64,000 nt of DNA from an uncultured Gammaproteobacteria bacterium (GTDB lineage: Bacteria; Patescibacteriota; Microgenomatia; CAZETR01; Amesbacteraceae). Every line of letters begins with the position of its first letter. Position 1 is the stretch's first letter. This document shows, in pieces, positions 25,430 to 57,560 of the stretch. The DNA lies in NCBI GenBank assembly GCA_964633995.1, contig CAZWKN010000002.1, forward strand, positions 113,119 to 177,118. The letters are read 5' to 3'. The translations under genes were made by a program, and so were the position numbers. The notes below the pieces were generated by a model. That model did not search any database. It was not told the DNA's origin and saw nothing but the letters and a program-made list of their open reading frames with translations.

Positions 25430-25430
25430 A

Positions 25431-30120: not shown

Positions 30121-30137
30121 AGCTCTATTATAGCTGG

Positions 30138-36993: not shown

Positions 36994-37783
36994 CGACCGA
37001 TTTTCCCCAGCCGTTATACCAAATTCCGGCTTCAGTACGATATCTTTCGGATGATGATGAGGTGTTGGGAATATTCAACATTTTTCTAATTGGATATATT
37101 AATGTTTCGATTAGATTTCGATATTTTTGGTTTTGGATTTGTTTCGAACTTTGGCCGTGTTCATGGACGATAGTTACATCACTATCAAAATATACTTTCA
37201 AGCCAGCTGCGCGGATTCGCCGGCAATAGTCCAAATCTTCGTAGTACATAAACACTTTTTCGGTAAATAAACCAATCTTGGTTAATGTGGACTTTGGAAA
37301 AAACATACATGCTCCTGAAACCGCATTTACCTCAGACGTAAGATTTGGTGTATATTTCGGAGTGTTTGTCAAAATTCTAGGTTCCAAAAAAACCGAACCC
37401 TGGGGATTTCCGTTTGGATCGACAAATTTGGGTCCCATGACACCCATGTCCAAATGGCGCCGGGTAAATTCTAAGGCTTTTGAAAAAAAATCTTTAGGAA
37501 TTTGCGTGTCGGGGTTGAGAAGCAAAATATAATCACCCGTCGCCTTCTTCAGACCTTGGTTTACGGCTCGAGGGAAACCTAAATTTTTGCTATTTGCAAC
37601 GATCGGTGCGATTTGCAAATCCTTGGCGACCTGGACTGAGTTGTCTGATGAGGCGTTATCGATGACTATAGTTTCAAGATTTGGATATTTGGTGGCAAGA
37701 ATTGATTGTAAACAACGCTTGAGAGAGTTTGCCACGTTCCAGCTGACAATAATTACACTAATTTTAGAAATTGATTTTTTCAC
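36926..37783 (-). CDS. GT2 family glycosyltransferase (GTG start)
   Basis: VKKSISKISVIIVSWNVANSL...TIVIDNASSDNS...ILLLNPDTQI. Its 3' end overlaps the convergent GT2 36118..36993 by 68 nt. Confidence 0.8.
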   Translation of the reverse strand: MKKSISKISVIIVSWNVANSLKRCLQSILATKYPNLETIVIDNASSDNSVQVAKDLQIAPIVANSKNLGFPRAVNQGLKKATGDYILLLNPDTQIPKDFFSKALEFTRRHLDMGVMGPKFVDPNGNPQGSVFLEPRILTNTPKYTPNLTSEVNAVSGACMFFPKSTLTKIGLFTEKVFMYYEDLDYCRRIRAAGLKVYFDSDVTIVHEHGQSSKQIQNQKYRNLIETLIYPIRKMLNIPNTSSSSERYRTEAGIWYNGWGKSVVMALVSWTGQKFRKLFANNTST

Positions 37784-39567: not shown

Positions 39568-40328
39568 ATGGCCCAAAGAGTGGGTAAAAGATAACCGGGG
39601 TGATGAAAGATCCTGGATCCTAGATGATAGATGTGAGAAAAATAATATTTAGATTCCAAGTTGTTCCAATGGGCAAGTAAATAATTTCTGTCTTTGGTTA
39701 ATTGAAGAGATTTTCTAGAAAACGTTTTGTTGAACGTCGATTCAGGAGTCGCGTGGGTAACTTTTGCCTTTGGGTCCCAGATTATCTCGTATCCTTTATT
39801 TCTGGCACGCCAACTGATATCTAGATCTTCATAATACCCGGGAGAAAAACGAGAATCGAAGCCACCAAGCTGATCCCATTGTGATTTACGAAAAGCGGCA
39901 CTGCCACCGGACGCCCAAAATGAAGAATGTAGCTTATCGTCTATCGGGCCATTATAAAATTCCAGAAAACCATTTTTAATCTCGGCCTTTGCCCAAGAAC
40001 GGCCCTGTTCGTTGAAAGTGACGGCAAAAACTTTAGGATCGGAAAAATGAGGTAAAACAAATTTGAGTAGGTTTCTATCTGGGTTAACATCTTGATTTAG
40101 CAGAATAATAATTTCACCAGAAGCTGCCGCAAAACCATCGTTAACTGATATGGGAAAACCCTTGTTGGATTTATGACGAATTATTTTAATGTTTGACGCG
40201 GTTACAGGATCACGTGATGCATCATCTACGACAATTATTTCATCGGCTCCCAAATTCCGAACTGAAGCTAAATTGGAGTCTAAAAACTGTTGCCCGTTGT
40301 AGGCTGGTATAACAACTGAGGTGGTCAC
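39549..40328 (-). CDS. GT2 family glycosyltransferase
   Basis: TSVVIPAYNGQQFL...IIVVDDASRD...IILLNQDVNP. Confidence 0.8.
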   Translation of the reverse strand: MTTSVVIPAYNGQQFLDSNLASVRNLGADEIIVVDDASRDPVTASNIKIIRHKSNKGFPISVNDGFAAASGEIIILLNQDVNPDRNLLKFVLPHFSDPKVFAVTFNEQGRSWAKAEIKNGFLEFYNGPIDDKLHSSFWASGGSAAFRKSQWDQLGGFDSRFSPGYYEDLDISWRARNKGYEIIWDPKAKVTHATPESTFNKTFSRKSLQLTKDRNYLLAHWNNLESKYYFSHIYHLGSRIFHHPGYLLPTLWAIWTKLV

Positions 40329-41497
40329 AGAAGCATTCCAATAAATAATGACAGGCCAGAAGCTGCCAACAAACTTCTGGCAAGCGAGGCAAGCTGATCG
40401 GGTGGATAGTGTGGAGCAATAAACCCGGAAAGAGAAAAGGTGCTGCCGAATAGTCCAAAGTTTAGGGATGGTTCAAACAGGAGTATTAACAACAAACATG
40501 CTAGTAAAAAAATCGCAATCGGAAGCCTGGATTGATGTTTGTATACCCACGCTAAAACTAATGTGGGCGAGGACCAAGTAAGCCATTGAGGGTGAAAATG
40601 AGTTACAGAATAAAAAAGCATGGGAACGGCAAGAAACCACCCCCAGATATCAATAACTTTGGGTTTAACAAAATTTAGAAAATATATCAAAAATAAGCCC
40701 ATGAAAAATAAAGAAAGGTATTGAGATCCAGACACCGGGATTTTGGCAAAAAGCAATTTATCAGACTGACTAGCCAGTAGGGCGTAGTGTTTAAAGGCGG
40801 GAGATGCTAAGTATGGCAACAAGGTTAGCAAATAAACTGATAAGCCGGTGAGAATATTTTTGATTTTTGACCCAGGTAGCAACGGGAGTAATAAAAGGGT
40901 AAAAGGTTTGAAACCTGCACTTAAAGCCACGCTGGCCGCAGCCAATAGCTGATTTTTTTTTGAAAAATAAAGAGCGATTAGGATAAACAAAGCCACGAAG
41001 ATGTCAAACTGGCCAACCATATAAGATGTATACACGTTGATAGGGTTAAACAGCCACACTAGGGAGCCCAACAGCCGTTTTTCGGGGTTGAGAATTTTTC
41101 TTAATACGAAAAGACAAAGCCCATCGGCTATTAAATAGGGCAGTTTGAGCAGGAATAATAATAGTGGTAAATTCGGATTGCCAACAACTTTACCTATATC
41201 GTCTAGCAGGATCATGAAGAGCGGTTTGGGGTATAGTGGATAAAGTAGCTTATTAAATAATCCGTGGGTTAGATAAGCGACGGGTGGGTAAATAAACAAA
41301 TCGTCTCCATAAAGTTTTACCCAGGTATGATTGCGGGGCAATTTACTAATATGATCGTAGAAAGTAAAAATCTCGCCTTTTTGAGCTATTAGAAAACCGG
41401 CCAAATTGACTGCTCTAAAGTCCGGGTGGATGGTTGTAACCATCAGAACAAGGCGTAGTACTAAACCGGCAATTAACCATGGAACCAGTTTTTTCAT
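40325..41497 (-). CDS. Polytopic membrane protein, GT-C-like (DUF2029/GT87-like)
   Basis: WLFNPINVYTSYMVGQFDIFVALFILIAL...GFKPFTLLLLPLL. Confidence 0.55.
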   Translation of the reverse strand: MKKLVPWLIAGLVLRLVLMVTTIHPDFRAVNLAGFLIAQKGEIFTFYDHISKLPRNHTWVKLYGDDLFIYPPVAYLTHGLFNKLLYPLYPKPLFMILLDDIGKVVGNPNLPLLLFLLKLPYLIADGLCLFVLRKILNPEKRLLGSLVWLFNPINVYTSYMVGQFDIFVALFILIALYFSKKNQLLAAASVALSAGFKPFTLLLLPLLPGSKIKNILTGLSVYLLTLLPYLASPAFKHYALLASQSDKLLFAKIPVSGSQYLSLFFMGLFLIYFLNFVKPKVIDIWGWFLAVPMLFYSVTHFHPQWLTWSSPTLVLAWVYKHQSRLPIAIFLLACLLLILLFEPSLNFGLFGSTFSLSGFIAPHYPPDQLASLARSLLAASGLSLFIGMLL

Positions 41498-42525
41498 AAC
41501 AATCTCTCTAGGGTGGCATTAAATACGTTTGTATCAAATAGTTTACTCTTTTTGATTGCCGACTGAGATAGGGCATCAACTTTAGAGGCATGTCGTGAAA
41601 GCTCTAGTGTGAGCCTCTCAAGTTGTTTTGGATCATCCCAGAGATAGCCATTAAGGTCGTTATCCACTATTTCCCTGTGCCCACCGAGATTGGTAATTAA
41701 TGGAACAGCACCAGCAGCCATGGCCTCAACAACGGTGATCCCAAAATGTTCCTGTTTGAGAAGATTTTCCTGGTCCGCCATAAACCCACTTGCTGACCAG
41801 TAAAACTTTCCTCGTCCACACAGGTTTGTTATCTCTGTAAAAGATGGGTTGAAGAGAAATTCTATTGGTAATCCCTTAGCCTGGTCAGTTAGGGTGTGTA
41901 TGGCTTTCTCGGTTGTCCCGACCCCGACTCCACCTGCCAAAACTAATTTCCACCCAGGAAGTTTTTTTGAGATACGGGCGAATGAGCTGATTAGTGTGGC
42001 GTGACCTTTTTGTTGAGTTAAGTTTGAAAATCTACCAATATAAAAAATTAAGTTGTCTTTATGTTTTGGAACAAACGCCTGTGTGTCTACGGGAGGATAA
42101 AGAATATGACTATGTATTTTGAACTCTTTATCAATAGCAAGTTTTGTAAAATCGGAATTGACAACAAAGACATAGAGTTTTGCCTTTAGTTGGTTGATAA
42201 AGCTTTTACCACCAATGTCCTTGAAAGGAAATTGAAAATGAATGATAGTTTTTTTGGAAAAAGAGGTCGGTAGACTTCCATCAGAGACCCAAAATACCAA
42301 ATCGAAACCCAAAGTACTTTGGATTTTGCCAAACCTAGCTTGAGAAATATCAATACCAAATCTGGTTTGAATTTCCGGGGAAACATTTTCCGGCCAGTTG
42401 ACACTTACCTGATGACCCTGGTCCAGAAAATATCTAATAGCCGCCGATACATAGCGTTCACCTCCACCAAACGTATTCCAGTAAGGATTAAATACTGCTA
42501 TTTTTTTCATATCTGAGCCTCCCAA
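41494..42525 (-). CDS. GT4 family glycosyltransferase
   Basis: YIGRFSNLTQQKG...LVLAGGVG...GITVVEAMAAGAVPLITNLGGHREIV. Confidence 0.8.
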   Translation of the reverse strand: MGGSDMKKIAVFNPYWNTFGGGERYVSAAIRYFLDQGHQVSVNWPENVSPEIQTRFGIDISQARFGKIQSTLGFDLVFWVSDGSLPTSFSKKTIIHFQFPFKDIGGKSFINQLKAKLYVFVVNSDFTKLAIDKEFKIHSHILYPPVDTQAFVPKHKDNLIFYIGRFSNLTQQKGHATLISSFARISKKLPGWKLVLAGGVGVGTTEKAIHTLTDQAKGLPIEFLFNPSFTEITNLCGRGKFYWSASGFMADQENLLKQEHFGITVVEAMAAGAVPLITNLGGHREIVDNDLNGYLWDDPKQLERLTLELSRHASKVDALSQSAIKKSKLFDTNVFNATLERLL

Positions 42526-43244
42526 ACTCTGGCATATATTATAAATGTATTAAAGACTTGAAATAGGCCGTCAATTACACCTTCTACACCATCTCTAGCT
42601 GCCTGAAATTTAATAAAACGTATCCAAAATTCTGTGGCCATCACCCTAATAAACCTCCACCAAACAATTGGCGGGTGTTTGGATTTAAGCCGAAGTTGTG
42701 ACTCATAACCAGTATAGAGAAGTGTTTTGTCTACCATCGTTGATAAATCTCGGTGGGAAAAGTGGACCATCTGATGCGAAAGAGTTGACAGTTCACAGTT
42801 GAATTCTGGCTGTTCATGCAGGTCTCCACGGTAACCTATTAGACAGGTCCGCTGGAATAAGCGGATTACTTTATCATTACCCCAACCACCAAAATGCATA
42901 AACCTACCTAGATAATTATTCAGGCGGGGAATTTCATACACCCCTTTGTGTTTTGTTTTTACAATTTCTATAATTTCATTTTTTAGCTTAGGGGTAATAC
43001 GTTCATCGGCGTCGACAAAGAGAATCCAATCACCCTGCGCTGCTTTTAGGCCATCATTTCTGAACTTAGAATAAGTTGTACCATGAGATGTAACTATTCT
43101 GGCTCCGAATTTTTTGGCAATGACGTTAGTAAGATCAGTATTTCCCGTATCTACTACGACCACCTCATCGGCAAATTCGACTGATTCCAGACAACCCCCA
43201 AGCATTGTTTGTTCGTTTTTGGTTATGATGACGACACTAAGCAT
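42507..43244 (-). CDS. GT2 glycosyltransferase, WaaE/KdtX-like subfamily
   Basis: Probable start M15: MLSVVIITKNEQTMLGGCLESVEFADEVVVVDTGNTDLTNVIAKKFGARIV...FVDADERI. Confidence 0.8.
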   Translation of the reverse strand: MLSVVIITKNEQTMLGGCLESVEFADEVVVVDTGNTDLTNVIAKKFGARIVTSHGTTYSKFRNDGLKAAQGDWILFVDADERITPKLKNEIIEIVKTKHKGVYEIPRLNNYLGRFMHFGGWGNDKVIRLFQRTCLIGYRGDLHEQPEFNCELSTLSHQMVHFSHRDLSTMVDKTLLYTGYESQLRLKSKHPPIVWWRFIRVMATEFWIRFIKFQAARDGVEGVIDGLFQVFNTFIIYARVWEAQI

Positions 43245-44136
43245 ACGAGCCCTTACCCAGATTGTTAAAATAGTAGTCCAAAACACCTTTTTTCTGCCAT
43301 TTTCTTCCGTTTATGAGCTGCCAAATCGACTGACGGATTAAGGCAATTTTTGTACGAAATGGCGCATGACTGATTCCAAACATCAGCCGATTTCTGGTTA
43401 TGTAGTAATCCTGGAGATCTGACCCAATGCCGGTTGCTTGAGCGTTGGCGTGCCAGGCAACACTCTTATATGAGTACATCAGATCGAAACCAAATTTTCT
43501 GGCTCTCTGGCACAAATCGTTTTCTTCGAAATACAAAAAATATTTCGAATTCAATAAGCCTACTTTGTCAAATACTTCACTTCTTATAAACATGGAAGCC
43601 CCGGTTATAAAATCAGACTTGGCATCTTTGTCGAATTGTCCATGGTCTACTTGGTCTACTCCTATATGTTCAGACGCGACGTTTTTCCAATCAATACGAC
43701 CTCCTGCAAACCAAATTACCCTGCCCAAATCTGATTTTTGATATTTATCCTTGTGAAATTCATAGCCGGATTTGAAATATATTTTCGACCCAAAAATACC
43801 AGCGTGTGGATATGTTTTTGCAGCAACAACTAGGGAAATAAGGGCGTTTGGATCTAATTCAATGTCTGGATTTACTATCCAAAAAAAATCAGGGCGATTT
43901 TTCTGACCTTCACGGATACCAATATTATTGCCCTCTGCGTATCCATAATTTTTGGAGTTACGAATGATTTTAACTGGGAATTTGGAAATTAGGCTCAAAG
44001 AGTTATCGGAGGAATTATTGTCTACGACAATGATTTCTAGTTGGTGAGATGATTTTTTTAGTTTGACGAGAGACTCTAAACATCTGGAAATATAGCCTTC
44101 ACCATTCCAATTAAGCACGATTACTGCAATTTTCAT
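43237..44136 (-). CDS. GT2 family glycosyltransferase
   Basis: MKIAVIVLNWNGEGYISRCLESL...IIVVDNNSSDNS. Confidence 0.8.
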   Translation of the reverse strand: MKIAVIVLNWNGEGYISRCLESLVKLKKSSHQLEIIVVDNNSSDNSLSLISKFPVKIIRNSKNYGYAEGNNIGIREGQKNRPDFFWIVNPDIELDPNALISLVVAAKTYPHAGIFGSKIYFKSGYEFHKDKYQKSDLGRVIWFAGGRIDWKNVASEHIGVDQVDHGQFDKDAKSDFITGASMFIRSEVFDKVGLLNSKYFLYFEENDLCQRARKFGFDLMYSYKSVAWHANAQATGIGSDLQDYYITRNRLMFGISHAPFRTKIALIRQSIWQLINGRKWQKKGVLDYYFNNLGKGSYA

Positions 44137-45035
44137 AATCCCAATTTACGAACTGTTTTAAGCAGAAGTTTGCCTAAAAACCCACTCTCGGATATTTTTG
44201 ATTGAATAAGCCACCAGTTAAAATCGCGGGCGGATTGGGCAAGAACTGTTTTGACCTCGGCAGGGTCAAGTGGTTTTGTGACAAACGCACTTGATTGCCA
44301 AAGTTTTAAGTATAAAACTAGTTCCGAAAACGCCTGAAGCAGAGATAGGGCTAGGCCGTGGAGTCCTTCTTTGTAGGCGTGTCTGGAAAAATATTGAGAT
44401 AGGAATTCTTCTGACGGTTTTGTTAATAGATCTGTCCACGAAAAATTATAACCGGCAGCCAGTTTTAATTTTAATTGGTGATCGGTATAGCGGTTTAACC
44501 TTTCAACGTATTGGCTAATTGATGTGTAATGATGGTGGACCAAACCAAATTTTTCCTGGGCAGGCAAGTCGGCACCCTTGCCCTTGGTGAGTGGGATACT
44601 GTGAATGGCGTCGCCCCAGGTTACTGAGCCTTTTTTAAATAATCGATATACGTAATCAGGCCACCAATGTGAACTTTTTATCCACTTGCCAAAGATGAGG
44701 CTTTTCCTGGGTATACGAAAATAATCCGGACCATTGGACATAGCTATTTGTGACTTGATCTCCTCTGCTAATGAGGGGGGTACTTCTTCGTCGGCATCGA
44801 GAAGCAAGATCCAGTCTCCCTTGGCTTTGGAAATGGAAAAATTACGGACGGGTTCGACTATTCCCGTGTTTTTGTGATGAAATACCTTACAACCAAGCTG
44901 TTTGGCTATTTTGACTGTCTCATCAGTGCTTTCGGTGTCGACGACTATAACCTCGTCCGCTATTCCTTTTATCGACGAAACGGCCCTTTCCAGATTCAAT
45001 TCTTCATTCCAGGCAGTAATTACTACGGAAAGCAT
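44133..45035 (-). CDS. GT2 glycosyltransferase, WaaE/KdtX-like subfamily; first gene of the long minus-strand unit
   Basis: MLSVVITAWNEELNLERAVSSIKGIADEVIVVDTESTDETVKIAKQLGCKV...LLDADEEV. Confidence 0.8.
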   Translation of the reverse strand: MLSVVITAWNEELNLERAVSSIKGIADEVIVVDTESTDETVKIAKQLGCKVFHHKNTGIVEPVRNFSISKAKGDWILLLDADEEVPPSLAEEIKSQIAMSNGPDYFRIPRKSLIFGKWIKSSHWWPDYVYRLFKKGSVTWGDAIHSIPLTKGKGADLPAQEKFGLVHHHYTSISQYVERLNRYTDHQLKLKLAAGYNFSWTDLLTKPSEEFLSQYFSRHAYKEGLHGLALSLLQAFSELVLYLKLWQSSAFVTKPLDPAEVKTVLAQSARDFNWWLIQSKISESGFLGKLLLKTVRKLGL

Positions 45036-45077: not shown

Positions 45078-46436
45078 GTGAAAACAGTGTGGCCGGTTTT
45101 AGTAATTTTAGCTATTTTTCTTACTTACATACACCTAAACCAGAGTTTTGCCCCCTACCCCAGTGAATTTGGACCACTCTGGATGGGCAAGACGAGAATT
45201 CCGGGATTGGTAATTAGTTGTTTGGCACTAAGTGTATTTGGATTATGGCTTTCTCGAACCGAAAAAAAAGTCGCCGTGGTATCTACGATGTTTTTGGGTA
45301 CTAGTTTATGGTGGATGTTATCGTCTCTTTTTTATCCCCTAACCGGCCTGACTTTTTTGGCTATTTGTCTGGTGCTGCTATTTGAAAACAAAGGCCTAAG
45401 ATGGCTGCTTTTGGTGATATTGGCATTAAGTGGTTTGATGGGAACAATGTGGGGATTGGTATATTCAACTCATAAAAAAGATTGGTTATTACTGGTTATT
45501 GTGGTGTTGATTGGAAGCCGGGCCGTGCTTACAGATAATGCATGGGTTGCTGCGCAAACAACTATCCCCAAAATAGCTGAAGAGGTCAGGGTTAGGATGC
45601 AGGAAGAGTTTAAGGTGAATGGATATAACATGATATGGCCGTTTAGAGTAAAACTTCTGGGATATAATACGTACTATTTTGCTGTCCGAGAAGGATACAA
45701 GGAACTTGTTAAAGTAATGGATTTTGATTTTTTGACTAGTCCTGGTCAGCAAAGCGCTACAATTAGCAGAGGGCTATGGACCGCCAAAGGGCTACCTGTT
45801 GTTTACTTTTGGTTGGTTTTATTGGCGATATGGGGACTATTTAATCGCGAAACTGTTTCTGATCAACTTAAAAAAACTAGTTGGATCCTGCTTGTGTGGG
45901 GACTGTTGGCTGGGATGGTTAGCCCTGGTCCCAAATTGGTTCAGTCGGCGATCGGAGTGGCTGCGTTTGTAGCAATCTGGGCTGGAGTGGGATTTATTAA
46001 TCTTAGAAATATGGGGAAAATTGTAGTGGTTGTGATTGGTTCATTGGGAATAACTTTTGGAACATGGCATCTGTTGACACATGAACTGTATTGGAGAGAC
46101 AACCGTCCATGGGTGTTTGAACAAATGGCAAAATCTGCAGTTAAACATGGGGCAGGAAGACCTGTCGTGGCTTCTAGCCTATTGGGGGATCCGAGCTCTT
46201 ATTTCACATCGCAAGCCACATTTAGACATTTTGATCTGACGACCGAAAAACTGGATAAAGAAATTGTCTATATAGGTTTACCTGGAGAGTTCTTAGGTGA
46301 CCGGAGTAAAAAGGGAGATAATCATTTTGAAAGCTCGTGGCTACCATCAGAGATGAAACTGCTAGAAACGATTCCAATTCACGACACGGTTAGTTTTGGT
46401 AATGGAGACTCTATATGGGTAGTCGAAACAAAGTAA
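45078..46436 (+). CDS. Polytopic membrane protein with C-terminal soluble domain; unknown (GTG start)
   Basis: About 10 TM helices, then a ~110-aa hydrophilic tail. First gene of the plus-strand membrane-protein operon. Confidence 0.5.
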   Translation: MKTVWPVLVILAIFLTYIHLNQSFAPYPSEFGPLWMGKTRIPGLVISCLALSVFGLWLSRTEKKVAVVSTMFLGTSLWWMLSSLFYPLTGLTFLAICLVLLFENKGLRWLLLVILALSGLMGTMWGLVYSTHKKDWLLLVIVVLIGSRAVLTDNAWVAAQTTIPKIAEEVRVRMQEEFKVNGYNMIWPFRVKLLGYNTYYFAVREGYKELVKVMDFDFLTSPGQQSATISRGLWTAKGLPVVYFWLVLLAIWGLFNRETVSDQLKKTSWILLVWGLLAGMVSPGPKLVQSAIGVAAFVAIWAGVGFINLRNMGKIVVVVIGSLGITFGTWHLLTHELYWRDNRPWVFEQMAKSAVKHGAGRPVVASSLLGDPSSYFTSQATFRHFDLTTEKLDKEIVYIGLPGEFLGDRSKKGDNHFESSWLPSEMKLLETIPIHDTVSFGNGDSIWVVETK

Positions 46437-48013
46437 TTTTTTCCACTATTGCCTTGGCGGGCATCGTGATCATGGGTGGGTATTTGAGAATTACCAGAAT
46501 TTCCGAATCTCCTCCGAGTGTAAACTGGGACGAAGCGGCTCTTGGATACAATTCTCTTGCGCTTTTTAAGACCGGACGAGATGAGTTTGGAAAAAAGATG
46601 CCATTGTCACTGAGATCTTTTGACGATTACAAACCAGCACTGTATTCATATTTAACCACGGGGTTTGTGGCCGGATTAGGCTTAAATGAATTGTCCACCA
46701 GACTAACTTCGATTGCTTCCGGTTTGATGCTGATTGCGTTGATGTATTATCTAGCCACAAAATTGACCGGAAGGCCTGAAATAGGACTGACTGCGGGACT
46801 ACTTATAGCGACAAGCCCTTGGGCAGTGCATTTTTCCAGAATTGCTTTCGAGGCCAACCTGGCGTGCATGCTATATTTTGCTGGCATAGCTTGTTTTGTA
46901 GCTGGATTGACGAAACCAAAATACGGCTACATTTCGGTGTTTTTGATGGTGTTATCAATGTACGCCTATCACGCCCAAAGGGCGATTGCATTACCGACCC
47001 TTGTTTTACTAGGGCTTGTATTCAAGCCCAAAGTTAAAATTGGGTGGCTGCTTGTCGCAGTAGTAGGGCTATTGCCACTTGGGATATCTTCTTTAGTGGA
47101 TCCCATTGGGGCCAGGCTAACTGCGACTAATATATTCAGACTTTGGCCATTCGTACCCTTGGAATTTAATGCTGGCCTGATTGCGTCCGGATATAGTTTG
47201 GTGTGGATGGTAGTGGGCCATTATTTGGCTTATCTATCGCCGGTAAATTTATTCTGGCAAGGTTCCGTTGAGCCTATTTTGAGAATGCCCCATCTGGGAC
47301 TTTTTGTTACAGAAGCACTTCCGTTGTTTATTGCCGGCTGGATAGTTTTACCGAAACAAAAAGCGTTAGCAAAGTTAATTATTTGCTTGGCGGTGCTTAC
47401 TCCACTTCCCGGAGTTATAACTTGGAATTGGTTTTCGGTGGTTCGATCATTGGCTGTTTATCCAACCTGGACACTAGTAATGGCCACCGGGGCAGTATTG
47501 GGCTTTGAAAGTATCAGGGGCAAGTTGGCAAAAATCAGTGCTCTAACACTTACCGTTGTGGTCTTTGGAATTTCCTGTGTGTACTCCATGGCAAGTTTAA
47601 TTTTGTACTACCCCGTGGAAACATATGGAGATTTCCAGCCGGGGTTTGAAAAAAGCGCACCATATTTAGTGGGCCGTGAACCAAGTGTAAGAGAAATTGT
47701 TTTTGACAGTCCCCATATTGCACCGTATATTTTTGTTTTGTTTTACGGCAAGTACCCGCCCGGTAAATATTTCGTTGAAGCAGGGTTGGACAGAAAAAAC
47801 TCAGGAACAGAAGATTATGTTTTTGGTAAATGGCAGTTTAGGAAAATTGATCCTAAATTTGATTTTGAAAAACGAAATGTTATCTTGGTGGGCTCTGTAT
47901 TTAGTATTCCAGATTATAAAGTTGAAGAGCTAAAGCGGGATGGAAAGCTGATAAAGTTAACTGATTTTCCCGACGCTATGGGCTATACTAGCTTGAGGGC
48001 TATTGAGTTATGA
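46415..48013 (+). CDS. GT-C fold membrane glycosyltransferase, PMT/ArnT-like; paralog 6 of 6
   Basis: ESPPSVNWDEAALGYNSLALFKTGRDEFGKKMPL...SFDDYKPALYSY...RLTSIASGLM. Confidence 0.7.
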   Translation: MGSRNKVIFSTIALAGIVIMGGYLRITRISESPPSVNWDEAALGYNSLALFKTGRDEFGKKMPLSLRSFDDYKPALYSYLTTGFVAGLGLNELSTRLTSIASGLMLIALMYYLATKLTGRPEIGLTAGLLIATSPWAVHFSRIAFEANLACMLYFAGIACFVAGLTKPKYGYISVFLMVLSMYAYHAQRAIALPTLVLLGLVFKPKVKIGWLLVAVVGLLPLGISSLVDPIGARLTATNIFRLWPFVPLEFNAGLIASGYSLVWMVVGHYLAYLSPVNLFWQGSVEPILRMPHLGLFVTEALPLFIAGWIVLPKQKALAKLIICLAVLTPLPGVITWNWFSVVRSLAVYPTWTLVMATGAVLGFESIRGKLAKISALTLTVVVFGISCVYSMASLILYYPVETYGDFQPGFEKSAPYLVGREPSVREIVFDSPHIAPYIFVLFYGKYPPGKYFVEAGLDRKNSGTEDYVFGKWQFRKIDPKFDFEKRNVILVGSVFSIPDYKVEELKRDGKLIKLTDFPDAMGYTSLRAIEL

Positions 48014-49371
48014 AAAGGTTTTGGTGGATTGTCTTGGTGGTAGTGATAATGGTGGTCAGGCTTTACAGAATTGATACCCATTCACACTTTATGACAGACG
48101 AATCCTCCGATTTGGTCCGGATGCATCAAATCTATGTGGAAAGGATGATTACCCTGGTGGGCCCAATCTCAGAGGACAGGAGTCACGTTTTTAGCTCGCT
48201 AACATACTACATGCTCTTGCCATTTGCTGTGATGTTTAATTTTGATCCCTTAGGCCCGGTCGTCGGCATGGTGTTTTGGGGAAGCTTAACTGCGATTATG
48301 TTAGCGATGGCAATAAAAAAAATAAACCCGAATTTTACGTTTATTGGAGCTATTTTTGTCTCCTTGTGGTGGCCATTGGTGTTAGGTTCCAGATGGGCAT
48401 GGAATCCAAACCTGGTAGCGTTTTGGATTGTCCTGGGATGGCATTTTTGCCAAAAAAAGGTCAGCTGGATGCAACTTCTTGGTGGATTATTTATGGGCTT
48501 GGCCGTGCATCATCATTATCTAGCCATACTACCTATCGGGGTGTATTTATTAATAAATCGAAACGGCTTTTTTGCGGCTGGATTGGCAGCTGCCTGGTTG
48601 CCTTTTGTCGCATTTGACTTAAGACATCCACCGGGTCTATTTATCATGCGCAGCCTAAACTATTATTCTGGAACAAAACAAGGATTCGAACTGCACAAAT
48701 CAATCCTTATGGCGTGGTCGACTTTTTCCGAGTATTTCTTTCCTCAGATAAGCCAGGTTTTTGTGACGATAGGCATATCTGCGTTGGTTGGATGGGACAT
48801 ACTTCGGCATAAAGCCTACTTATTTGGACTGGCGAATTGGATTGTTGCCTTAGTGGGTTTAATTTTATTATCTTTCCAATTTCACTATGTGCTACCAGTT
48901 GCTGTTTTTTTTGTATTGTGGATTTTTGCAAAACGGAATGGATTTGGAAAGGTTGTACAACTAATCATTATAATTACGATAATTTGCGGGTCGATACTTA
49001 AATTTTCTAAGGAAATTTCCTCGTATTCGCTTTACGGAAATTTAAAGGAGACCAGGCAGATTGTTAAAATTATCAGTGACCAAATTACAACACAAAAACT
49101 TGTCAATCCAAATTTGGCAATTCTGGCTAGTGATGATATATATACCAACGGGAATAAATATCGGGACCTACTATTGGTTAATAACATCAGACTAAGAATG
49201 GCTTCTGAATACGAGATCTCTGATAATTTGTTTGTGGTAACCCAAAAGGATGAACAAACTATCAGAGATGATCCGGCAGCCGAAAGAGCGAAGTTTAGGC
49301 CAGGACCGTTATATGGCTACTGGCAAATTCCAAATTCCAGTTGGAGAGTTTATCAGTTTAATAAATATTGA
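48010..49371 (+). CDS. Polytopic membrane protein, GT-C-like candidate
   Basis: About 11 TM helices; early-loop acidic motif HFMTDESSD; C-terminal ~110-aa soluble domain. Confidence 0.45.
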   Translation: MKRFWWIVLVVVIMVVRLYRIDTHSHFMTDESSDLVRMHQIYVERMITLVGPISEDRSHVFSSLTYYMLLPFAVMFNFDPLGPVVGMVFWGSLTAIMLAMAIKKINPNFTFIGAIFVSLWWPLVLGSRWAWNPNLVAFWIVLGWHFCQKKVSWMQLLGGLFMGLAVHHHYLAILPIGVYLLINRNGFFAAGLAAAWLPFVAFDLRHPPGLFIMRSLNYYSGTKQGFELHKSILMAWSTFSEYFFPQISQVFVTIGISALVGWDILRHKAYLFGLANWIVALVGLILLSFQFHYVLPVAVFFVLWIFAKRNGFGKVVQLIIIITIICGSILKFSKEISSYSLYGNLKETRQIVKIISDQITTQKLVNPNLAILASDDIYTNGNKYRDLLLVNNIRLRMASEYEISDNLFVVTQKDEQTIRDDPAAERAKFRPGPLYGYWQIPNSSWRVYQFNKY

Positions 49372-50645
49372 TGAAAAAGTTTTTACTAATACTGGTGCTT
49401 GTATCGGGAATGTGGCTACGCTTGTGGTTGGCGCCGAAGGCGTTTCATGATGACATATACAGTAATGCCGGTTGGGGTACATGGATTTACCAACATGGCC
49501 CCAAGGGCTTTTATGAAAATAACGTCTGGGTCTATTCATGGCCAACCCAACCCCCACTTATTAGTTACATATATGGTTGGAATAAATCATTTTATGTCGA
49601 ACTGCTGGGGAGAATTGCTTGGATAAATCATCAGGTGCAAAAAATTTATTACGTTAGTTGGCTGGACAACTTCGTACAATGGTTTGCTTTTGGAATCGTA
49701 AATATTGAAATTCCGTTTCAGATAGGCTATTTGATTACCATGAAACTTTTGCCAATTTTTGCCGATGTAGGCATTGCGCTGCTAATGTATAAATTGTCGA
49801 ATAGATTGTTTTGGCCAACGGTGTATTTATTTTTTCCGTTTAGCTGGTATTTGTCTGCTTTGTGGGGCCAGTATGACCAGGTGAGTTCATTGATATTGTT
49901 TTTAGCATTTTTGGCCGTAACAAAAAAGAAAATTGTTTGGCTATCACCTATTCTTGCCGCCATTTCGATTTTGCTTAAGCCCACCGGACTCGTGCTCATG
50001 CCCCTTTTGGCAGGAATGTACATCTGGAAATGCAAATATTGGAAGCAACTGATTTTTGGCGGGTTGTTGGGGTTGTGCGTGTTTACTAAATCCACCAGCT
50101 TGTTTGCCGATCGAGGCGAGTTTGCGTATTGGCACCACACGCTTATTCGGATGGTCTTTTTCAAGTCGGAATTTAGAGTGTCGACAAATGCATTTAACGC
50201 ATGGCGCATATTAATTGGCAATAAGGCAGTGAATCAGGATGCCAAATTTTTGAGCCTTCCTGCCAAATGGTGGGGCTATGGAGTGATGGCCATTTCACTG
50301 ATAATAGTATTTAAAAAATACAGGAAGTGGACTGACCGAGAAATCACTGAATCCGTATTCCTGATATCAGGCTCTGCCTGGATGTTTATGACCGGAATGC
50401 TGGATAGGTATGTGTTTATGGCCATCTTCACCGGATTGGTTGCTTGTATGTACAATCAAAAATTACTTAGCTACTGGGTTGTATTGGCGTTAATTTTTTC
50501 GATCAACCTGTATCACGGTTGGTGGTTTCCAAATGGCTTTGTATTAAAACAAATTTTGGAATGGAATAATGGAGTAATTACGCAGGGTTTATCTTTGGTT
50601 AATGTGTTGGTGTATATTAAGATGGCAAAATTGATTGTGGCATGA
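49368..50645 (+). CDS. Polytopic membrane protein, GT-C-like (DUF2029/GT87-like)
   Basis: FPFSWYLSALWGQYDQVSSLILFLAFLAV...ILLKP. Confidence 0.55.
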   Translation: MMKKFLLILVLVSGMWLRLWLAPKAFHDDIYSNAGWGTWIYQHGPKGFYENNVWVYSWPTQPPLISYIYGWNKSFYVELLGRIAWINHQVQKIYYVSWLDNFVQWFAFGIVNIEIPFQIGYLITMKLLPIFADVGIALLMYKLSNRLFWPTVYLFFPFSWYLSALWGQYDQVSSLILFLAFLAVTKKKIVWLSPILAAISILLKPTGLVLMPLLAGMYIWKCKYWKQLIFGGLLGLCVFTKSTSLFADRGEFAYWHHTLIRMVFFKSEFRVSTNAFNAWRILIGNKAVNQDAKFLSLPAKWWGYGVMAISLIIVFKKYRKWTDREITESVFLISGSAWMFMTGMLDRYVFMAIFTGLVACMYNQKLLSYWVVLALIFSINLYHGWWFPNGFVLKQILEWNNGVITQGLSLVNVLVYIKMAKLIVA

Positions 50646-52309
50646 AAAACATAATTATTCTGGTACTATTCGCGGTCTTGACGTTCCCTGCTTACAAGGC
50701 CTTACGACATCCAGGACTTATATATGGACATGATTCTGAATCGGTGTTATTTCGGTCAATTGAGTTCCGCCAGGCGATAGCTGACGGCAATTTTCCAGTT
50801 AGGTGGTCAAAAAGATTGGACTATGGGTTGGGACAACCAACATTTACGTTTACGTACAATTTGCCATATTATTTATCGTTTGGGCTGGGGCTAGTGGGCC
50901 TTTCGGAGCTCTGGTCATTTAAACTAATTTATGCGCTTAGTTTCCCATTAAGCGCATTTTTTGCGTACTTGTGGCTTAGAAAGCACGTGGGGACAAAGGC
51001 AGCATTGCTGGGAGGACTTTTTTATACTTACTCACCATATCATTTTGCAAACGTGTATGTCAGAGCGGCATTTGGAGAAATCGTAGCTGCCACCGTGGCG
51101 CCTTTGGTTTTTTATGGAGTATTTTTACTGGCTACAAAAACTGACCTTCGGAATATTGCCAAATGCGGGTTGCTGGTGGCATTGATGGCATTAAGTCATA
51201 ATTTCTACTTAATTATCCTCTTGCCCATATTGACTGGTTATTATTTTGTAGTTGCCCGCAATTTCAGAATTTGGACTGTAATTGCCTGGGGCCTAGTGGT
51301 GACATTGGGAATTGGTTTGGCAAGCTATTATTTAATCCCGGCATTTGTATATAAGGATCTGACTTTCTTAACAGATATGGCCAGGTGGTTTTCGGAAAAT
51401 AATAATTTTATTACCGCCAAGGATTTGCTTGCGTCTTCTTGGGGATTTGGGGGTTTAAGACGAGACGGAGGCGACGGGTTGTTATCCATTCAAATTGGAT
51501 TAGTACATCTGGCCTTGGCAACAGGCAGTTTGATACTAATATTAAAAAACCGACTGGCTTCGGGGCAAAAAAAAGTAACTTTGTTTTTTTTGATAGTGCT
51601 ATGTGGAATTGTATTTTTGATGCATAAGGAAAGTACCTTTGTCTGGGACATGCTTCCCATCCTCAAAAACCTTCAATTCCCATGGAGGTTAATGTTTGTA
51701 GTAAATCTGGTAGTGGCATTTTGCATAGGGCTATTTTTTGATCGAAATTTGAAAACGGTGATAGTTTTTACTTTAATTATCGGCTTAATCGGTGTAAGTA
51801 GTAGATATTGGCATGTACATCGATATTTTCCATGGATTGATCCCACCCCCAAAACCATTGGCTACCCCGGGACTTTGACTATGCTCTTTGAAGAGACACC
51901 AAGATGGCATGAGATCCGCCAGGAACCAAATCCGCACTTTTTGGCACAAGTGAGTTCAGGTGAGGCAGATACGTCTGAGTTGGCGTGGAAGACAAATTAC
52001 CAAGCAGTGAGCGTTGATTGTAAACACGATTGTGTAATTGCTTTCAAAACACATTTTTGGCCGGGGTGGAAAGTATACGTAGATTCAAAAGAGACAGCAT
52101 TAATAGACCCTTATGATGAGCTTAGTCAGGGGTTATTGAGTTTGAAAGTGCCGAACGGAAAACACATAGTGGAGGCGAAACTTTCTGAACCTTTATTGGG
52201 AAAAATTGGCGACACGGTTACGATATTTTTTGGACTTATTACAACTATTCTTTTTGTGGCACCTTCCAAATTTCCGTTTCTGAATCGGAATAAACTTTGG
52301 ATAAGTTAA
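50642..52309 (+). CDS. 'PTPS-related/YfhO-like' polytopic membrane protein with C-terminal beta-rich domain; paralog B of 3
   Basis: RHPGLIYGHDSESVLFRSIEFRQAIADGNFPVRWSKRLDYGLGQPTFTFTYNLPYY. Confidence 0.45.
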   Translation: MKNIIILVLFAVLTFPAYKALRHPGLIYGHDSESVLFRSIEFRQAIADGNFPVRWSKRLDYGLGQPTFTFTYNLPYYLSFGLGLVGLSELWSFKLIYALSFPLSAFFAYLWLRKHVGTKAALLGGLFYTYSPYHFANVYVRAAFGEIVAATVAPLVFYGVFLLATKTDLRNIAKCGLLVALMALSHNFYLIILLPILTGYYFVVARNFRIWTVIAWGLVVTLGIGLASYYLIPAFVYKDLTFLTDMARWFSENNNFITAKDLLASSWGFGGLRRDGGDGLLSIQIGLVHLALATGSLILILKNRLASGQKKVTLFFLIVLCGIVFLMHKESTFVWDMLPILKNLQFPWRLMFVVNLVVAFCIGLFFDRNLKTVIVFTLIIGLIGVSSRYWHVHRYFPWIDPTPKTIGYPGTLTMLFEETPRWHEIRQEPNPHFLAQVSSGEADTSELAWKTNYQAVSVDCKHDCVIAFKTHFWPGWKVYVDSKETALIDPYDELSQGLLSLKVPNGKHIVEAKLSEPLLGKIGDTVTIFFGLITTILFVAPSKFPFLNRNKLWIS

Positions 52310-53855
52310 ATTGCGCTAGGTTTATGGCCACAGGCATCAGTTTGGGAATGTAAACGTAAGAGATGTGGTTGGTAGTCAGAAAGTTATTAACCTGATTGGG
52401 ATATGTGCCTGAAAAGAAATCTACGATCTGGAGATGGCGTGATTTCCAGTCGTAGCCAGTTATATTTAAGTTTACTTCATCGGCTAAATATGTTTGTTGT
52501 CCAGAATAAGCGGAAATATAGCCAGTAGATTCATATAAATAAAGTGGCCTGGGAGGAGAATGTTCAAACTTGCTACTTAAGCTCTTGTCAAACACTGGTG
52601 TAAGTACAACACCTTGAGGAAGTCTGCCAAGAAAAGTTAGGGCGGACAACTCCTGTGACGAAATTTTCGCCGGCGGTCTTTTCGGTAGGTAGTGCCTTAA
52701 AGTGCCAAGCGTAGTGGGAATAGTTAACAATACAATCATTAGACATAAGAGTTTATTTGGCCGCAAACTTGCAAATGATATTCCGGCCAACAAACCAAGT
52801 GCAAATTGTGAATAATAAAAAAACTGGATAGTATTCCAGGCTGTGCCGGACTGGGTAAACAACATTGGAATAAACAGGCCAACAACTACAACTGTGATCA
52901 AAAAAATTTGTAGTGCATCCAGTTTTTTTGGGGCCTTAACTAACCCTATTAACCGTGTTCCAAAATTACCCAAGGTAAAAATTAACAAGGCAAGTGAAAA
53001 GGCAGGAATGCCTTTTAGGAGATTAGTGCTAATTCTGTAAGTGTTCAGAGCCGAAAAAAACTTAGGACTATTTAACCGATCGGGGCCCATCATGGTTTCT
53101 AAAAACCAAAGCGGCTGAAAGTGCAGTAGTTTTACTGAAGATGAATTCAATGGCATAAATAATCCGAGTGAAATTATCACTGACGGCAGTAATACTTTGA
53201 GCCATTTTTTATTTTTTAGGCTGCCTAATGCCAACCCGGCAAAACTTAATAGGCCGATGTATATTTTGATTTCCGGTAAAATTGAAAACACTAAAATAGC
53301 CGATAGAAAGCGATTTTTGTGCAATAGTATAAGTCCTAATAATAATAGAGCTAGTGAGAATGCGTAGGGGGGGTTTATGAGTGTAGAGATAGATTGTTGG
53401 GCCCAAAAAACAGACTCCCCTGCCCCCATGACCCATCCAAGGCTTCCTCCAAAATAAACAAAAAATAATGTCCATAAGGCTGCCAACTTCGACTTTTGCC
53501 AACTAAGTATGAAAAAGTAGGCAAGTAATCCGATTAAGGCAGATATTAAAACTGGAAAGATTTGAAAGTATAAGATGGTAACCGGAAGCTTGGTTATAAG
53601 GTGGATGAATGTCACCAATAAATCAAATCCCAGATGGTAATTTTTTATGGCTTCTCCTGCAAATATTGGCATGTCCAAAGAGCCCCTAGAAAGACTCTGG
53701 ATAAGCGATATGTGCCAAATACCGTCGTGCCCATTTGGACCCCAAAAACCCAAGCCATACGAGTAGGTTAGGCCATTTTTAACCATGGTCACCAGCCATG
53801 TTATGGAACCGATAAGGATGACTAGCCAGTGTTTATTTTTTTTGACGAAAGGCAT
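52245..53855 (-). CDS. Polytopic membrane protein (536 aa) directly downstream of the Wzx flippase; possible polymerase/ligase-like or GT-C enzyme
   Basis: About 12 TM helices with a ~130-aa C-terminal soluble domain. No family motif recognised; the context call comes from adjacency to wzx. Confidence 0.4.
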   Translation of the reverse strand: MPFVKKNKHWLVILIGSITWLVTMVKNGLTYSYGLGFWGPNGHDGIWHISLIQSLSRGSLDMPIFAGEAIKNYHLGFDLLVTFIHLITKLPVTILYFQIFPVLISALIGLLAYFFILSWQKSKLAALWTLFFVYFGGSLGWVMGAGESVFWAQQSISTLINPPYAFSLALLLLGLILLHKNRFLSAILVFSILPEIKIYIGLLSFAGLALGSLKNKKWLKVLLPSVIISLGLFMPLNSSSVKLLHFQPLWFLETMMGPDRLNSPKFFSALNTYRISTNLLKGIPAFSLALLIFTLGNFGTRLIGLVKAPKKLDALQIFLITVVVVGLFIPMLFTQSGTAWNTIQFFYYSQFALGLLAGISFASLRPNKLLCLMIVLLTIPTTLGTLRHYLPKRPPAKISSQELSALTFLGRLPQGVVLTPVFDKSLSSKFEHSPPRPLYLYESTGYISAYSGQQTYLADEVNLNITGYDWKSRHLQIVDFFSGTYPNQVNNFLTTNHISYVYIPKLMPVAINLAQFNLSKVYSDSETEIWKVPQKE

Positions 53856-55326: not shown

Positions 55327-56619
55327 TCAATAGCGATAGTGATCAGCCTTAAAGGGCCCGTTTTTGGAGACGCCAAGATATTCCGCCTGATCGGGGGTTA
55401 ACCTGGTCAATTTTCCCCCTAATTGACCAATGTGGAGCATTGCCACTTTTTCATCCAAATATTTAGGCAGCCTGTATACACCCACTTCGTACTTTTTTGT
55501 GAAAAGCTCTATCTGGGCCAAAACCTGATTGGTAAACGAATTGGACATGACGAAGGACGGATGGCCCGTAGCACAGCCGAGGTTGACTAACCTGCCTTCT
55601 GCCAAAAGGATAATGCGATGGCCATCTGGAAACGTATATTGATCAACTTGTGGTTTAATCTGTTCTTTTTTGATCTTTGGGAAATCGTTTAAGGCTTTGA
55701 CCTGAATTTCCACGTCGAAGTGACCAATGTTGCATACGATTGCGGTGTCTTTCATGTGTTTCATATGTTCGAGCGTGATAATGTCTTTACATCCCGTTGC
55801 AGTAACAAAAATATCCGCTCTTTTTACAGCTTCGGCCATTGTGACAACCTCATAGCCCTCCATTAAAGCTTGAAGTGCACAAATCGGATCGATCTCAGCG
55901 ACAAGAACCCTACAACCAAATCCCCTAAGCGACTGTGCACTACCTTTGCCAACATCTCCAAAACCATTAACCACTGCCACTTTTCCGGCCAACATGATAT
56001 CCGTTGCCCGTTTAATGCCGTCTGCAAGAGATTCGCGACAACCATAGAGGTTGTCAAATTTTGATTTGGTGACACTGTCATTGACGTTAATTGCAGGAAT
56101 TTTAAGTTCACCTTTAGAGTGCCGCTGATAGAGATGATGAACCCCGGTAGTGGTTTCTTCTGACACTCCTCTAATATCTTTTAATAACTCTGGATGTTTT
56201 TCGTGTACCCAGCCAGTCAGGTCTCCACCGTCATCCAATAGTAAGTTTGGACCGCGGCCTTTTGAGAACTTAAGTGTCTGATCAGTGCACCACCAATAGT
56301 CTTTCTCGGACTCGCCTTTCCAAGCAAAGACCGGCGTGTTGGCTGCTGCAATCGCGGCAGCGGCGTGATCTTGAGTAGAAAAAATATTACACGATGCCCA
56401 TCTAACGTCCGCACCCAACGCCTGAAGAGTTTCGATTAGCACGGCCGTTTGAATAGTCATGTGCAGTGAACCGGAAATTCTAGCATTTTTGAGAGGTTTT
56501 GATTTTGAATATTCGCGCCTAAGACTCATTAGGCCCGGCATTTCATTTTCGGCAAGTTTAATTTCCATCCGACCCCAACGAGCTAAGGAGAGATCTTTGA
56601 CTTTGTAGTCTTTGGTCAT
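55327..56619 (-). CDS. ahcY: Adenosylhomocysteinase (S-adenosyl-L-homocysteine hydrolase)
   Basis: [28 protein letters not shown]...[40 protein letters not shown]..., the canonical AHCY NAD-binding and substrate motifs; 430 aa. Confidence 0.95.
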
Positions 56620-57560
56620 GAGAGCTTTAGTTCTTGGTGATAATTTTCAAAATAACGGGAAACATACTGTGAAATAGAATATTCGTGAGTCATGGTACCA
56701 TATTTTTCTACAGTGTAAACAGCGGAAACCGATCCCATCTGGCCGCAAGTTTGCAAATCAAAGCCCCGAATAAGCCCTGCGACAAAACCCCCCCTAAAAG
56801 CATCTCCTGCTCCGGTGGGGTCCAAAGAATTTTCTGGGGATGCGGGGGCTATTTCAAAACGGGCAGACGGTGTTTCAATAATGGAACCTTTTTGGCCAAG
56901 TGTGGTAATCAAAATTGGAACTGATTTAACAAGTGCTGAATGGGAAACGGAAAGCTTTTTTTCGATAAGTGATATTTCGTAATCATTGCCTATTAAAATA
57001 TAGGCCCCGGAGGCTAAATCTTTGAGATCCTTTTTGGTAAACGCGTCTATTTGGAAAGCTGGATCAAATAAATATGGTATTTTTTTGTCTTGACATTCTA
57101 GTCCATATTTTTTCATTGCCTCCGGGCTAGTCGGAGCGAGAATGGCAAGTTCGGGACGGGGGTTGATAGTATTTATGGACAAGTCGTTAGCATATTTGGT
57201 AGCACCGGCATAAAACGACCCTATTTGATTGTCGTCCTGGTCTGTAACTACAAAGTAAGAGCCCGTAGTAACGTCCGGAAATGTTTGAATGTAAACTGTG
57301 GAGATCTTTCGATTTTCCAGAAATTTAAGATATGGTGCAAAGTCGTTACCAGCCGGAGCAACAATATATGGATTGACGCCCAAGAGTTTCAAATTGTATG
57401 CAATATTGCCTGCAGTACCCCCCAATTGCTTTTCCAACTTATTGACCAAAAAACTTAGGGAAATTTTGTGTATCTTATCCGGCATGATCCTATCCGCAAA
57501 GCGGCCAGGAAAATCCATGATGTAGTCAAACCCCAACGTACCCGTTACAACCACACACAT
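56616..57560 (-). CDS. PfkB-family carbohydrate/nucleoside kinase, most likely adenosine kinase
   Basis: [12 protein letters not shown]-terminal motif and [18 protein letters not shown]-terminal PfkB signature. Start and stop overlap ahcY (ATGA), which suggests an SAH-to-adenosine-to-AMP couple. Confidence 0.8.

Follow-up and report, generated by a model that had tools for sequence, protein, structure and literature searches.

We analysed a 64-kb window, the term being used here for the whole stretch of DNA under study (contig CAZWKN010000002.1, assembly GCA_964633995.1) and coming from a tiny-celled bacterium of the Patescibacteria, in which the region 45078-52309 carries five back-to-back, overlapping open reading frames (ORFs) on the plus strand. 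These genes, designated P1 to P5 in their order along the DNA, had been described in an original prediction made from the sequence as an operon of five candidate GT-C-type glycosyltransferases devoid of soluble enzymes. The coordinates proved exact, all five products are polytopic membrane proteins, and the genes are not interspersed with any for a soluble enzyme:

45078-46436, plus strand: P1, GTG start, 452 amino acids (aa)
46415-48013, plus strand: P2, ATG start, 532 aa
48010-49371, plus strand: P3, ATG start, 453 aa
49368-50645, plus strand: P4, TTG start, 425 aa (424 aa in a public gene call, which uses ATG 49371)
50642-52309, plus strand: P5, ATG start, 555 aa

Start and stop codons overlap at all four junctions. 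P1 and P2 share 22 nucleotides (nt), an overlap absent from the original prediction, which had proposed translational coupling through ATGA overlaps at 48010 and at 49368/50642. The ATGA arrangement is present at the P2/P3 (48010-48013) and P4/P5 (50642-50645) junctions, but the P3/P4 junction at 49368 reads TTGATGA, with an overlap of 4 nt if the TTG start of P4 is used and of 1 nt with the ATG start. On its 5' side the operon diverges from the adjoining genes, as had been stated: only 42 bp separate the start side of P1 from a GT2 gene on the minus strand (44133-45035). At the other end, the 3' end of P5 overlaps by 65 nt a convergent gene on the minus strand (52245-53855), here termed X6. 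A strong terminator-like hairpin (50931-50957, plus strand), with an 11-bp stem and a TTTTTT run behind it, falls within P5, some 290 nt into the coding sequence; in total, terminator-like sites are about as numerous in this region as expected from shuffled sequence.

Family assignment of the five membrane proteins

Glycosyltransferases of the GT-C type are polytopic membrane proteins with 7-13 transmembrane (TM) segments and a cytoplasmic N-terminus, and their defining feature is a DxD, DD or DE motif that closely follows TM1 and lies in the first extracytoplasmic loop (PMC6801728). The GT-C clan of Pfam includes the PTPS_related, PMT, PMT_2 and GT87 families (PMC7801869). Kyte-Doolittle profiles of P1-P5 revealed approximately 6-9 strong TM segments in each protein. 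Direct scans of P1-P4 against Pfam and NCBIfam were empty even at E<=10, and the assignment of these proteins hence draws on their families, paralogues and models.

P5 scores above the Pfam cut-off for PTPS_related (PF10131; 31.7 bits against a cut-off of 26.4, E 7.4e-8, residues 73-403), which bears out its earlier description as PTPS-related and designates it, on sequence grounds, as a predicted YfhO-like member of the GT-C clan. Its family also aligns with that of P2 (hhalign 97.3%, E 1.8e-11), and the Asp of a GHD motif following TM1 (D31) is present in all 24 aligned sequences. Two paralogues of P5 are encoded in the window, at 28552-30120 (which also matches YfhO) and at 57570-59204. Because P5 is only about 27% identical to the latter, it is not a recent duplicate.

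The PMT/ArnT likeness put forward for P2 holds through its relatives, but not through any direct match, since P2 fails to match PMT_2 or PMT in Pfam and its syntenic orthologues (44-53% identity) carry no precomputed Pfam match. BLAST comparisons link P2 to five paralogues in the window (starting at 23816, 25431, 30138, 34494 and 59201) with E-values from 1e-25 to 3e-52. Four of these paralogues pass the PMT_2 gathering score, two of them also matching PMT, and one falls just short. In addition, the P2 family profile gives a marginal match to ArnT in the PDB (5ezm, E 0.0012), and D39 and E40 of the NWDE motif after TM1 are found in 43 of 43 sequences. P2 can hence be described, on the basis of these profiles, as a predicted relative of PMT_2/PMT (GT39/GT83-like) that lies below direct detection as a member.

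A similar situation was observed for P4, for which the name DUF2029-like survives through family members matching GT87 (PF09594, formerly DUF2029), but not through P4 itself. Among 33 aligned members of its family, eight match GT87 (weakly, best E 5.6e-6), two PMT_2 and one Alg6_Alg8. About 120 homologues were identified, several with PF09594 or with the JGI name 'Gpi18-like mannosyltransferase', and the P4 profile matches ALG6 marginally in the PDB (E 0.005). A HDD motif follows TM1, with D29 present in 32 of 33 sequences; D133 is invariant and D170 is again conserved in 32 of 33. Further P4 paralogues are encoded in the window at 32172-33320, 33310-34497 and 40325-41497, and a public 4.9-kb Logan fragment from the same organism was retrieved through P4. 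These similarities suggest that P4 is related to GT87/DUF2029 rather than a member of it.

P3 belongs to a family of about 200 homologues that is restricted to the Patescibacteria and has no Pfam model, and the profile of this family returned no match among PDB sequences. Its 171 N-terminal columns, with the acidic motif among them, align with the P2 family (hhalign 96.8%), and the P3 family also aligns with the P4 family (hhalign 88.8%). The motif following TM1, TDESSD, is almost perfectly conserved (D30 in 43 of 43 sequences, E31 and D34 in 42 of 43), and further invariant residues include R128, W129, W131, H167, H169, D203 and R309. The helices of the AlphaFold model, read with the positive-inside rule, place clusters of Lys and Arg in every predicted cytoplasmic loop of P3. 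The conserved patches (R128-W-x-W-N, H167/H169, D203 and the C-terminal domain) would then face the outer side, in what would be a canonical GT-C layout.

Structure-based assignment of 45078-46436 and 48010-49371, which the original prediction had proposed as a check for its two unclassified members, returned GT-C folds for both. Solved GT-C enzymes resemble the P1 and P3 models in three dimensions with Foldseek probabilities of 0.96-1.00, the top matches being ArnT and Pmt1/2/4, with EmbA, AftA, AftB, AftD, PIG-U and GAB1 also among them. The AlphaFold helices of both proteins fit 11 TM segments with the N-terminus inside and the C-terminus outside, and this predicted topology agrees with the Lys- and Arg-rich cytoplasmic loops and the Lys- or Arg-containing N-terminus that both sequences present when read against the helices.

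The acidic motif after TM1 is invariant, or nearly so, in the alignments of four families (P2, P3, P4 and P5). Together with the profile links between families, the Pfam match of P5 and the matches of P2 paralogues and P4 relatives to PMT_2 and GT87, these results support the original identification of five GT-C-type candidates, and indicate that they represent five different subfamilies.

P1 and its association with P2

The P1 family comprises about 50 cluster representatives and lacks a Pfam model. A word-indexed homologue search with P1 returned only P1 itself, and its relatives had to be retrieved by exhaustive search; the family profile found no match among PDB sequences. Comparison of family alignments, on the other hand, aligned the P1 family to the P2 family over its full length (hhalign 99.4%, E 5.8e-21, 434 columns), including the C-terminal domain. 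In every pairwise comparison P1 is the fastest-evolving member of the unit, with 32-51% identity against 43-65% for P2-P4. P1 is thus a divergent, fast-evolving GT-C-fold paralogue of the P2 family.

Wherever the sequence continues downstream of a P1-family gene, the gene immediately after it, in the same orientation, belongs to the P2 family. The count comprises eight genome or contig loci (two of the same species) and eight of nine metagenome loci (two, again, of the same species), the ninth ending at P1. The adjacency extends to loci that are otherwise differently organised and only 22-24% identical. When the P2 partners in these distant P1 loci were compared with the eight PMT_2-like paralogues of the window, their best match was the P2 of the operon.

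Conservation of the gene order

To address gene-neighbourhood conservation, another check named in the original prediction, we assembled 56 loci from species-representative genomes, fetched via the P3 alignment, together with contigs carrying P3 homologues and nine metagenome loci with P1 relatives. The ORFs in these loci (numbered with an L prefix) were labelled with hidden Markov models built from the family alignments. In Amesbacteria-like relatives, the analysis outlined a recurrent block composed of GT2a, GT2b and GT2a on the minus strand, P1, P2, P3 and P4 on the plus strand, and X6, a Wzx flippase, a P5-like and a P2-like gene on the minus strand. This block was seen in L002, L003/L012, L005, L006, L007, L054 (fragmented) and L061-L063, with identities to the window of 32-38% for P1, 46-53% for P2, 43-49% for P3 and 43-48% for P4. 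In farther relatives, P3 either adjoins P2-family genes or is found without them, surrounded by GT4, GT2, Wzy and flippase genes. The conserved core is therefore twofold: P1 and P2 are always adjacent, and P1-P2-P3-P4 is maintained in the Amesbacteria-like lineage. For P1-P4, the proposed check thus gave a positive outcome.

P5 is appended as a fifth plus-strand gene in the window alone, and is absent from the plus-strand unit of L002, L003, L005, L006, L007, L012, L054 and L061-L063. It is hence a lineage-specific addition, and the P5-like gene of the conserved block corresponds in the window to 57570-59204.

Several peculiarities of these loci were also recorded. In L054 (8377-14156), from an Amesbacteria metagenome-assembled genome (MAG), P2, P3, P4, X6 and the P5-like gene are each split into at least two ORFs, with P1 and the GT2 genes intact; this is due either to frameshifts introduced in assembly or to a decaying cluster. 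A second pair, formed by a P3-like (PMT_2-positive) and a P4-like gene, lies upstream of a GT4 and three GT2 genes in L002 (428-3092), L007, L012, L061 and L062. Its counterpart in the window consists only of the P4-like gene 40325-41497, with a GT2 and a carbamoyltransferase gene in place of the P3-like one. Lastly, although the gene is specific to Patescibacteria, many of the GTDB species-representative records in which it occurs bear the title 'uncultured Gammaproteobacteria' or 'uncultured Pseudomonadales bacterium' (L006-L009, L013, L015, L016 and others), and one is titled 'Candidatus Methanoperedens sp.' (L040); such titles probably denote mislabelled or mis-binned MAGs.

The surrounding locus

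The operon is embedded in a large set of glycan-related genes, of which the following are the most directly associated with it or the most similar in organisation:

42507-43286, 43237-44136 and 44133-45035, minus strand: three cytoplasmic GT2 genes (Pfam Glycos_transf_2)
52245-53855, minus strand: X6, 536 aa, polytopic, convergent with P5
53833-55311, minus strand: Wzx-type polysaccharide flippase, 492 aa (Polysacc_synt_3 E 2.9e-49, Polysacc_synt E 9.5e-19)
23816-36098, minus strand: run of eight polytopic GT-C-like genes (three PMT_2-like, PTPS_related, PMT_2-like, two P4-like, PMT_2-like)

The GT2a-GT2b-GT2a trio adjoins P1 in all Amesbacteria-type loci, and its GT2a proteins are 58-62% identical to their orthologues. 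X6 adjoins the Wzx flippase in at least 14 related loci. It presents an invariant GHDGIWH motif after TM1 and further invariant residues (Y73, H74, D78, K197, Y199 and N341). No match to X6 was found in Pfam, NCBIfam or PDB sequences, and hhalign values against the P1-P5 families stayed below 12%; X6 could be another GT-C enzyme, a ligase or a polymerase.

Overall, the window encodes at least 17 GT-C-like proteins (eight PMT_2-like, four P4-like, three PTPS_related, P1 and P3) and one further, weak AftD-like candidate. It also contains about 16 GT2 and five GT4 genes, four or five S-adenosylmethionine (SAM) methyltransferases, an S-adenosylhomocysteine (AdoHcy) hydrolase, a PfkB kinase, a carbamoyltransferase, a short-chain dehydrogenase/reductase and the Wzx flippase. 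This density of GT-C genes is very high for a small genome, and P1-P5 is one of several GT-C runs in one large glycan locus. The operon had been called a self-contained module, a term that is too strong given that P5 lies outside the conserved unit and that at least 12 further GT-C-like genes are present in the window.

Other genes of the window were noted in passing. Four SAM-methyltransferase genes lie on the minus strand (607-2631, 3650-4336, 8564-9358 and 14458-15297), and genes for the AdoHcy hydrolase and the PfkB-family kinase (55327-57560, minus strand) separate the flippase from further GT-C genes, a position from which both are absent in L002 and L007. The combination of methyltransferases with AdoHcy hydrolase and kinase suggests SAM-cycle support for a heavily methylated glycan. 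A NodU/CmcH-type carbamoyltransferase (37780-39465, minus strand; Carbam_trans_N and Carbam_trans_C) is encoded among the glycosyltransferases and, judging by these domains, would imply a carbamoylated sugar. Four further genes encode proteins without a Pfam match: 4280-6547, on the plus strand among minus-strand genes (755 aa, about 11 TM segments), and, on the minus strand, 19305-21113 (602 aa, one N-terminal TM segment), 21926-23041 (371 aa, about 8 TM segments) and 63133-63999 (at least 288 aa, about 5 TM segments), the last one reaching the window edge.

Proposed function and alternative explanations

We consider it likely that P1-P5 bring together five different GT-C subfamilies in one translationally coupled unit, whose products would act outside the membrane on a surface glycan, glycolipid or glycoprotein. 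The five proteins would be expressed jointly, with the acidic first loop and the C-terminal domain of each on the outer face of the membrane, by analogy with characterised GT-C enzymes. An acceptor would be initiated by the cytoplasmic GT2/GT4 enzymes encoded nearby, and the adjacent Wzx flippase would carry it across the membrane. Once outside, it would receive single sugars moved by each GT-C enzyme from polyprenyl-phosphate carriers, with one linkage type per enzyme and presumably in successive steps. By the same analogy, the operon probably decorates the cell surface from the outside, and we infer that it does so by elongating a glycan and not by glycosylating proteins or polymers.

Several observations weigh against this proposal. 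Neither a polyprenyl-phosphate-sugar synthase (of the GtrB/DPM1/ArnC type) nor a priming phosphoglycosyltransferase was identified among the window genes. The earlier suggestion that sugar donors are made elsewhere in the locus is plausible in view of its many GT2 genes, but searches with the GT2 genes against the PDB and NCBIfam yielded only generic GT2 similarity (GmaR, DPMS, rhamnosyltransferase and MftF-like), far below curated cut-offs, and none could be singled out as such a synthase. The GT-C assignment of P2, P4 and P5 comes from sequence profiles, and the notion of a single transcription unit is suggested by the gene overlaps, scans with consensus promoters and terminators having returned shuffle-level, uninformative results on this point. 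P5 is not conserved in the unit, and five sequential steps therefore do not constitute a conserved pathway. Finally, no acidic residue in loop 1 or at the catalytic position is invariant in the P1 family: position 29, which corresponds to the P2 Asp, varies among sequences, and position 30, the counterpart of the P2 Glu, is Glu in 18 sequences and Gln in 11. In the window P1, the first loop is truncated to about 19 residues and contains a single Glu (FAPYPSEF) with no DE motif, and the protein also departs from residues conserved in its own family (YNK to YNT, SPW to SLW).

These features suggest that P1 may not be catalytic. We regard as possible, if tentative, a refinement in which P1 serves P2 as a partner, either specialised or non-catalytic. 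In the latter case P1 would be a GT-C paralogue acting as the obligate companion or scaffold of P2, so that the operon would encode four catalysts and one accessory subunit. Its full-length homology to P2 in spite of the missing Asp, its faster evolution and its invariable position immediately upstream of P2 all speak for this view, as do the presence of PIG-U and GAB1 among the structural matches and the precedents set by the Pmt1-Pmt2 and EmbA-EmbB heteromers and by PIG-U, a non-catalytic subunit with a GT-C fold. Distant P1-like proteins keep a P2-type loop, 'TLSE(V/A)KEAYTSYSI...G.DTNGE', and one of them (L069) keeps DE, which shows that P1 derives from a P2-like protein and that the Asp was lost along the way. 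The corresponding Asp is the essential residue in Streptomyces coelicolor Pmt, where D113A is dead and E114A active, and in ArnT, where D55 is essential (PMC8698208). The same Pmt enzyme, however, tolerates D113N (PMC8698208), so a polar residue at this position may suffice, and the syntenic orthologues of P1 present ExE or DxE in the first loop, an accepted variant of DxD (PMC6801728). P1 also has strongly conserved extracytoplasmic motifs of its own (YNK, P222, WRDNRP and GxPGEFxG), which suggest a specific function.

Known bacterial members of the families involved add single sugars; actinobacterial Pmt, and YfhO acting with CsbB, transfer them onto proteins or teichoic acids. It is conceivable, though rather unlikely, that P1-P5 are five independent protein O- or wall-polymer glycosyltransferases (PMT-like and YfhO-like), each adding a single sugar to a different target. 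The PMT_2/PMT-like nature of the P2 family and the PTPS_related/YfhO-like nature of P5 are compatible with this alternative, and so is the variation of the unit among lineages, with P5 added in the window and P3 found elsewhere either by itself or together with P2. One complex glycan is nevertheless the better fit for the tight and conserved order of P1-P4, given the Wzx flippase and the large set of cytoplasmic GT2/GT4 and sugar-modifying enzymes next to it.

A bolder proposition, which we view as unlikely and put forward as speculation, combines two claims. P1 and P2 would constitute an obligate heteromer of an active PMT_2-like enzyme and its Asp-less paralogue, comparable to Pmt1-Pmt2 and EmbA-EmbB, and the 64-kb island, with its GT-C-like genes, its numerous GT2, GT4, methyl- and carbamoyltransferases and its Wzx flippase, would form an assembly line for many-step extracytoplasmic glycan synthesis, resembling that of the endoplasmic reticulum (ER), in an ultra-small episymbiont, with at least two unmodelled GT-C families (P1-like and P3-like).

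That the five genes were merely juxtaposed by chance in a locus crowded with membrane-protein genes is very improbable: about 40% of the window ORFs are polytopic, another run of eight such genes exists and P5 is not conserved in the unit, but the start/stop overlaps at all four junctions and the P1-P4 order, which recurs in related genomes and metagenome contigs and is kept at 32-53% identity across several species-level genomes, speak against coincidence. Even less credible is the possibility, named by the original prediction as its refutation, that the two unclassified members, both polytopic and without Pfam or NCBIfam matches, are transporters or permeases unrelated to glycosylation, because P1 and P3 match transporters of the major facilitator superfamily type and G protein-coupled receptors with Foldseek probabilities of at most 0.11, against the values close to 1 obtained for GT-C enzymes, and because profile-profile homology links both proteins to the PMT_2-like family.

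Implications

The cell envelopes of the Patescibacteria (also known as CPR) are almost unstudied, though they mediate attachment to host cells, and literature searches found no paper on these families or on GT-C expansions in this group. The locus described here would illustrate how a genome-reduced organism gives a large contiguous block of its DNA to extracytoplasmic glycosylation. For two families of 'hypothetical proteins' without Pfam coverage (P1 and P3), the analysis also provides a fold and a catalytic motif that can be put to the test, and adding these families to CAZy and to the Pfam GT-C families could improve the annotation of CPR genomes. In our view, the most interesting leads are the density of GT-C genes and the pairing of P1 with P2, in which the conservation of two adjacent genes, one of them without the hallmark Asp, provides a concrete candidate for a GT-C heteromer with a catalytic and a non-catalytic partner.

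Comparison with known systems

Among known systems, the mycobacterial embCAB operon and the Aft arabinosyltransferases (GT-C; GT53, GT85 and others) resemble P1-P5 in presenting paralogous GT-C genes in a row with no soluble enzyme. Emb and Aft enzymes work on the outer side of the membrane and use a polyprenyl-phosphate sugar as donor, EmbA and EmbB form a heteromer, and EmbA, AftA, AftB and AftD figure among the structural matches reported above. The resemblance does not extend to the sequence level: P1-P5, with 425-555 aa, are much smaller than those enzymes of about 1,100 aa and have no C-terminal carbohydrate-binding modules of the Emb type, and they come from five subfamilies, whereas embCAB consists of three close paralogues.

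The ER-lumenal ALG (ALG3, ALG9, ALG12 and ALG6/8/10) and PIG mannosyltransferases offer a parallel for sequential action on one lipid-linked glycan, which in the bacterial enzymes would be a presumed property. The ALG genes, by contrast, are eukaryotic and dispersed, with no operon, and identities amount to 7-15%.

With PMT and ArnT (GT39/GT83) the likeness is closer. P2 paralogues match PMT_2 and PMT, the P2 profile matches ArnT, and a DE follows TM1 in both P2 and P3; the P1 and P3 models would share with these enzymes the 11 TM segments, the cytoplasmic N-terminus and an extracytoplasmic C-terminal domain. P1-P4 differ in lying below Pfam detection, and none of P1-P5 has a MIR domain. The acceptors in this group are protein Ser/Thr or lipid A; to our knowledge, Patescibacteria lack lipid A.

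The logic proposed here is that of the Gtr and CsbB-GtcA-YfhO systems, in which the polyprenyl-phosphate sugar is produced by a GT2 enzyme and moved outwards by a flippase, and a GT-C enzyme then attaches the sugar to a surface polymer outside the cell. The operon departs from this scheme in having five GT-C genes instead of one, and neither a small flippase of the GtrA/GtcA type nor a GT2 enzyme of the GtrB/CsbB type was recognised among the window genes.

PIG-U and GAB1, components of the glycosylphosphatidylinositol (GPI) transamidase, have kept the GT-C fold without glycosyltransferase chemistry and hence provide a precedent for an Asp-less P1. They show no specific sequence relationship to P1, which is clearly derived from a PMT_2-like paralogue.

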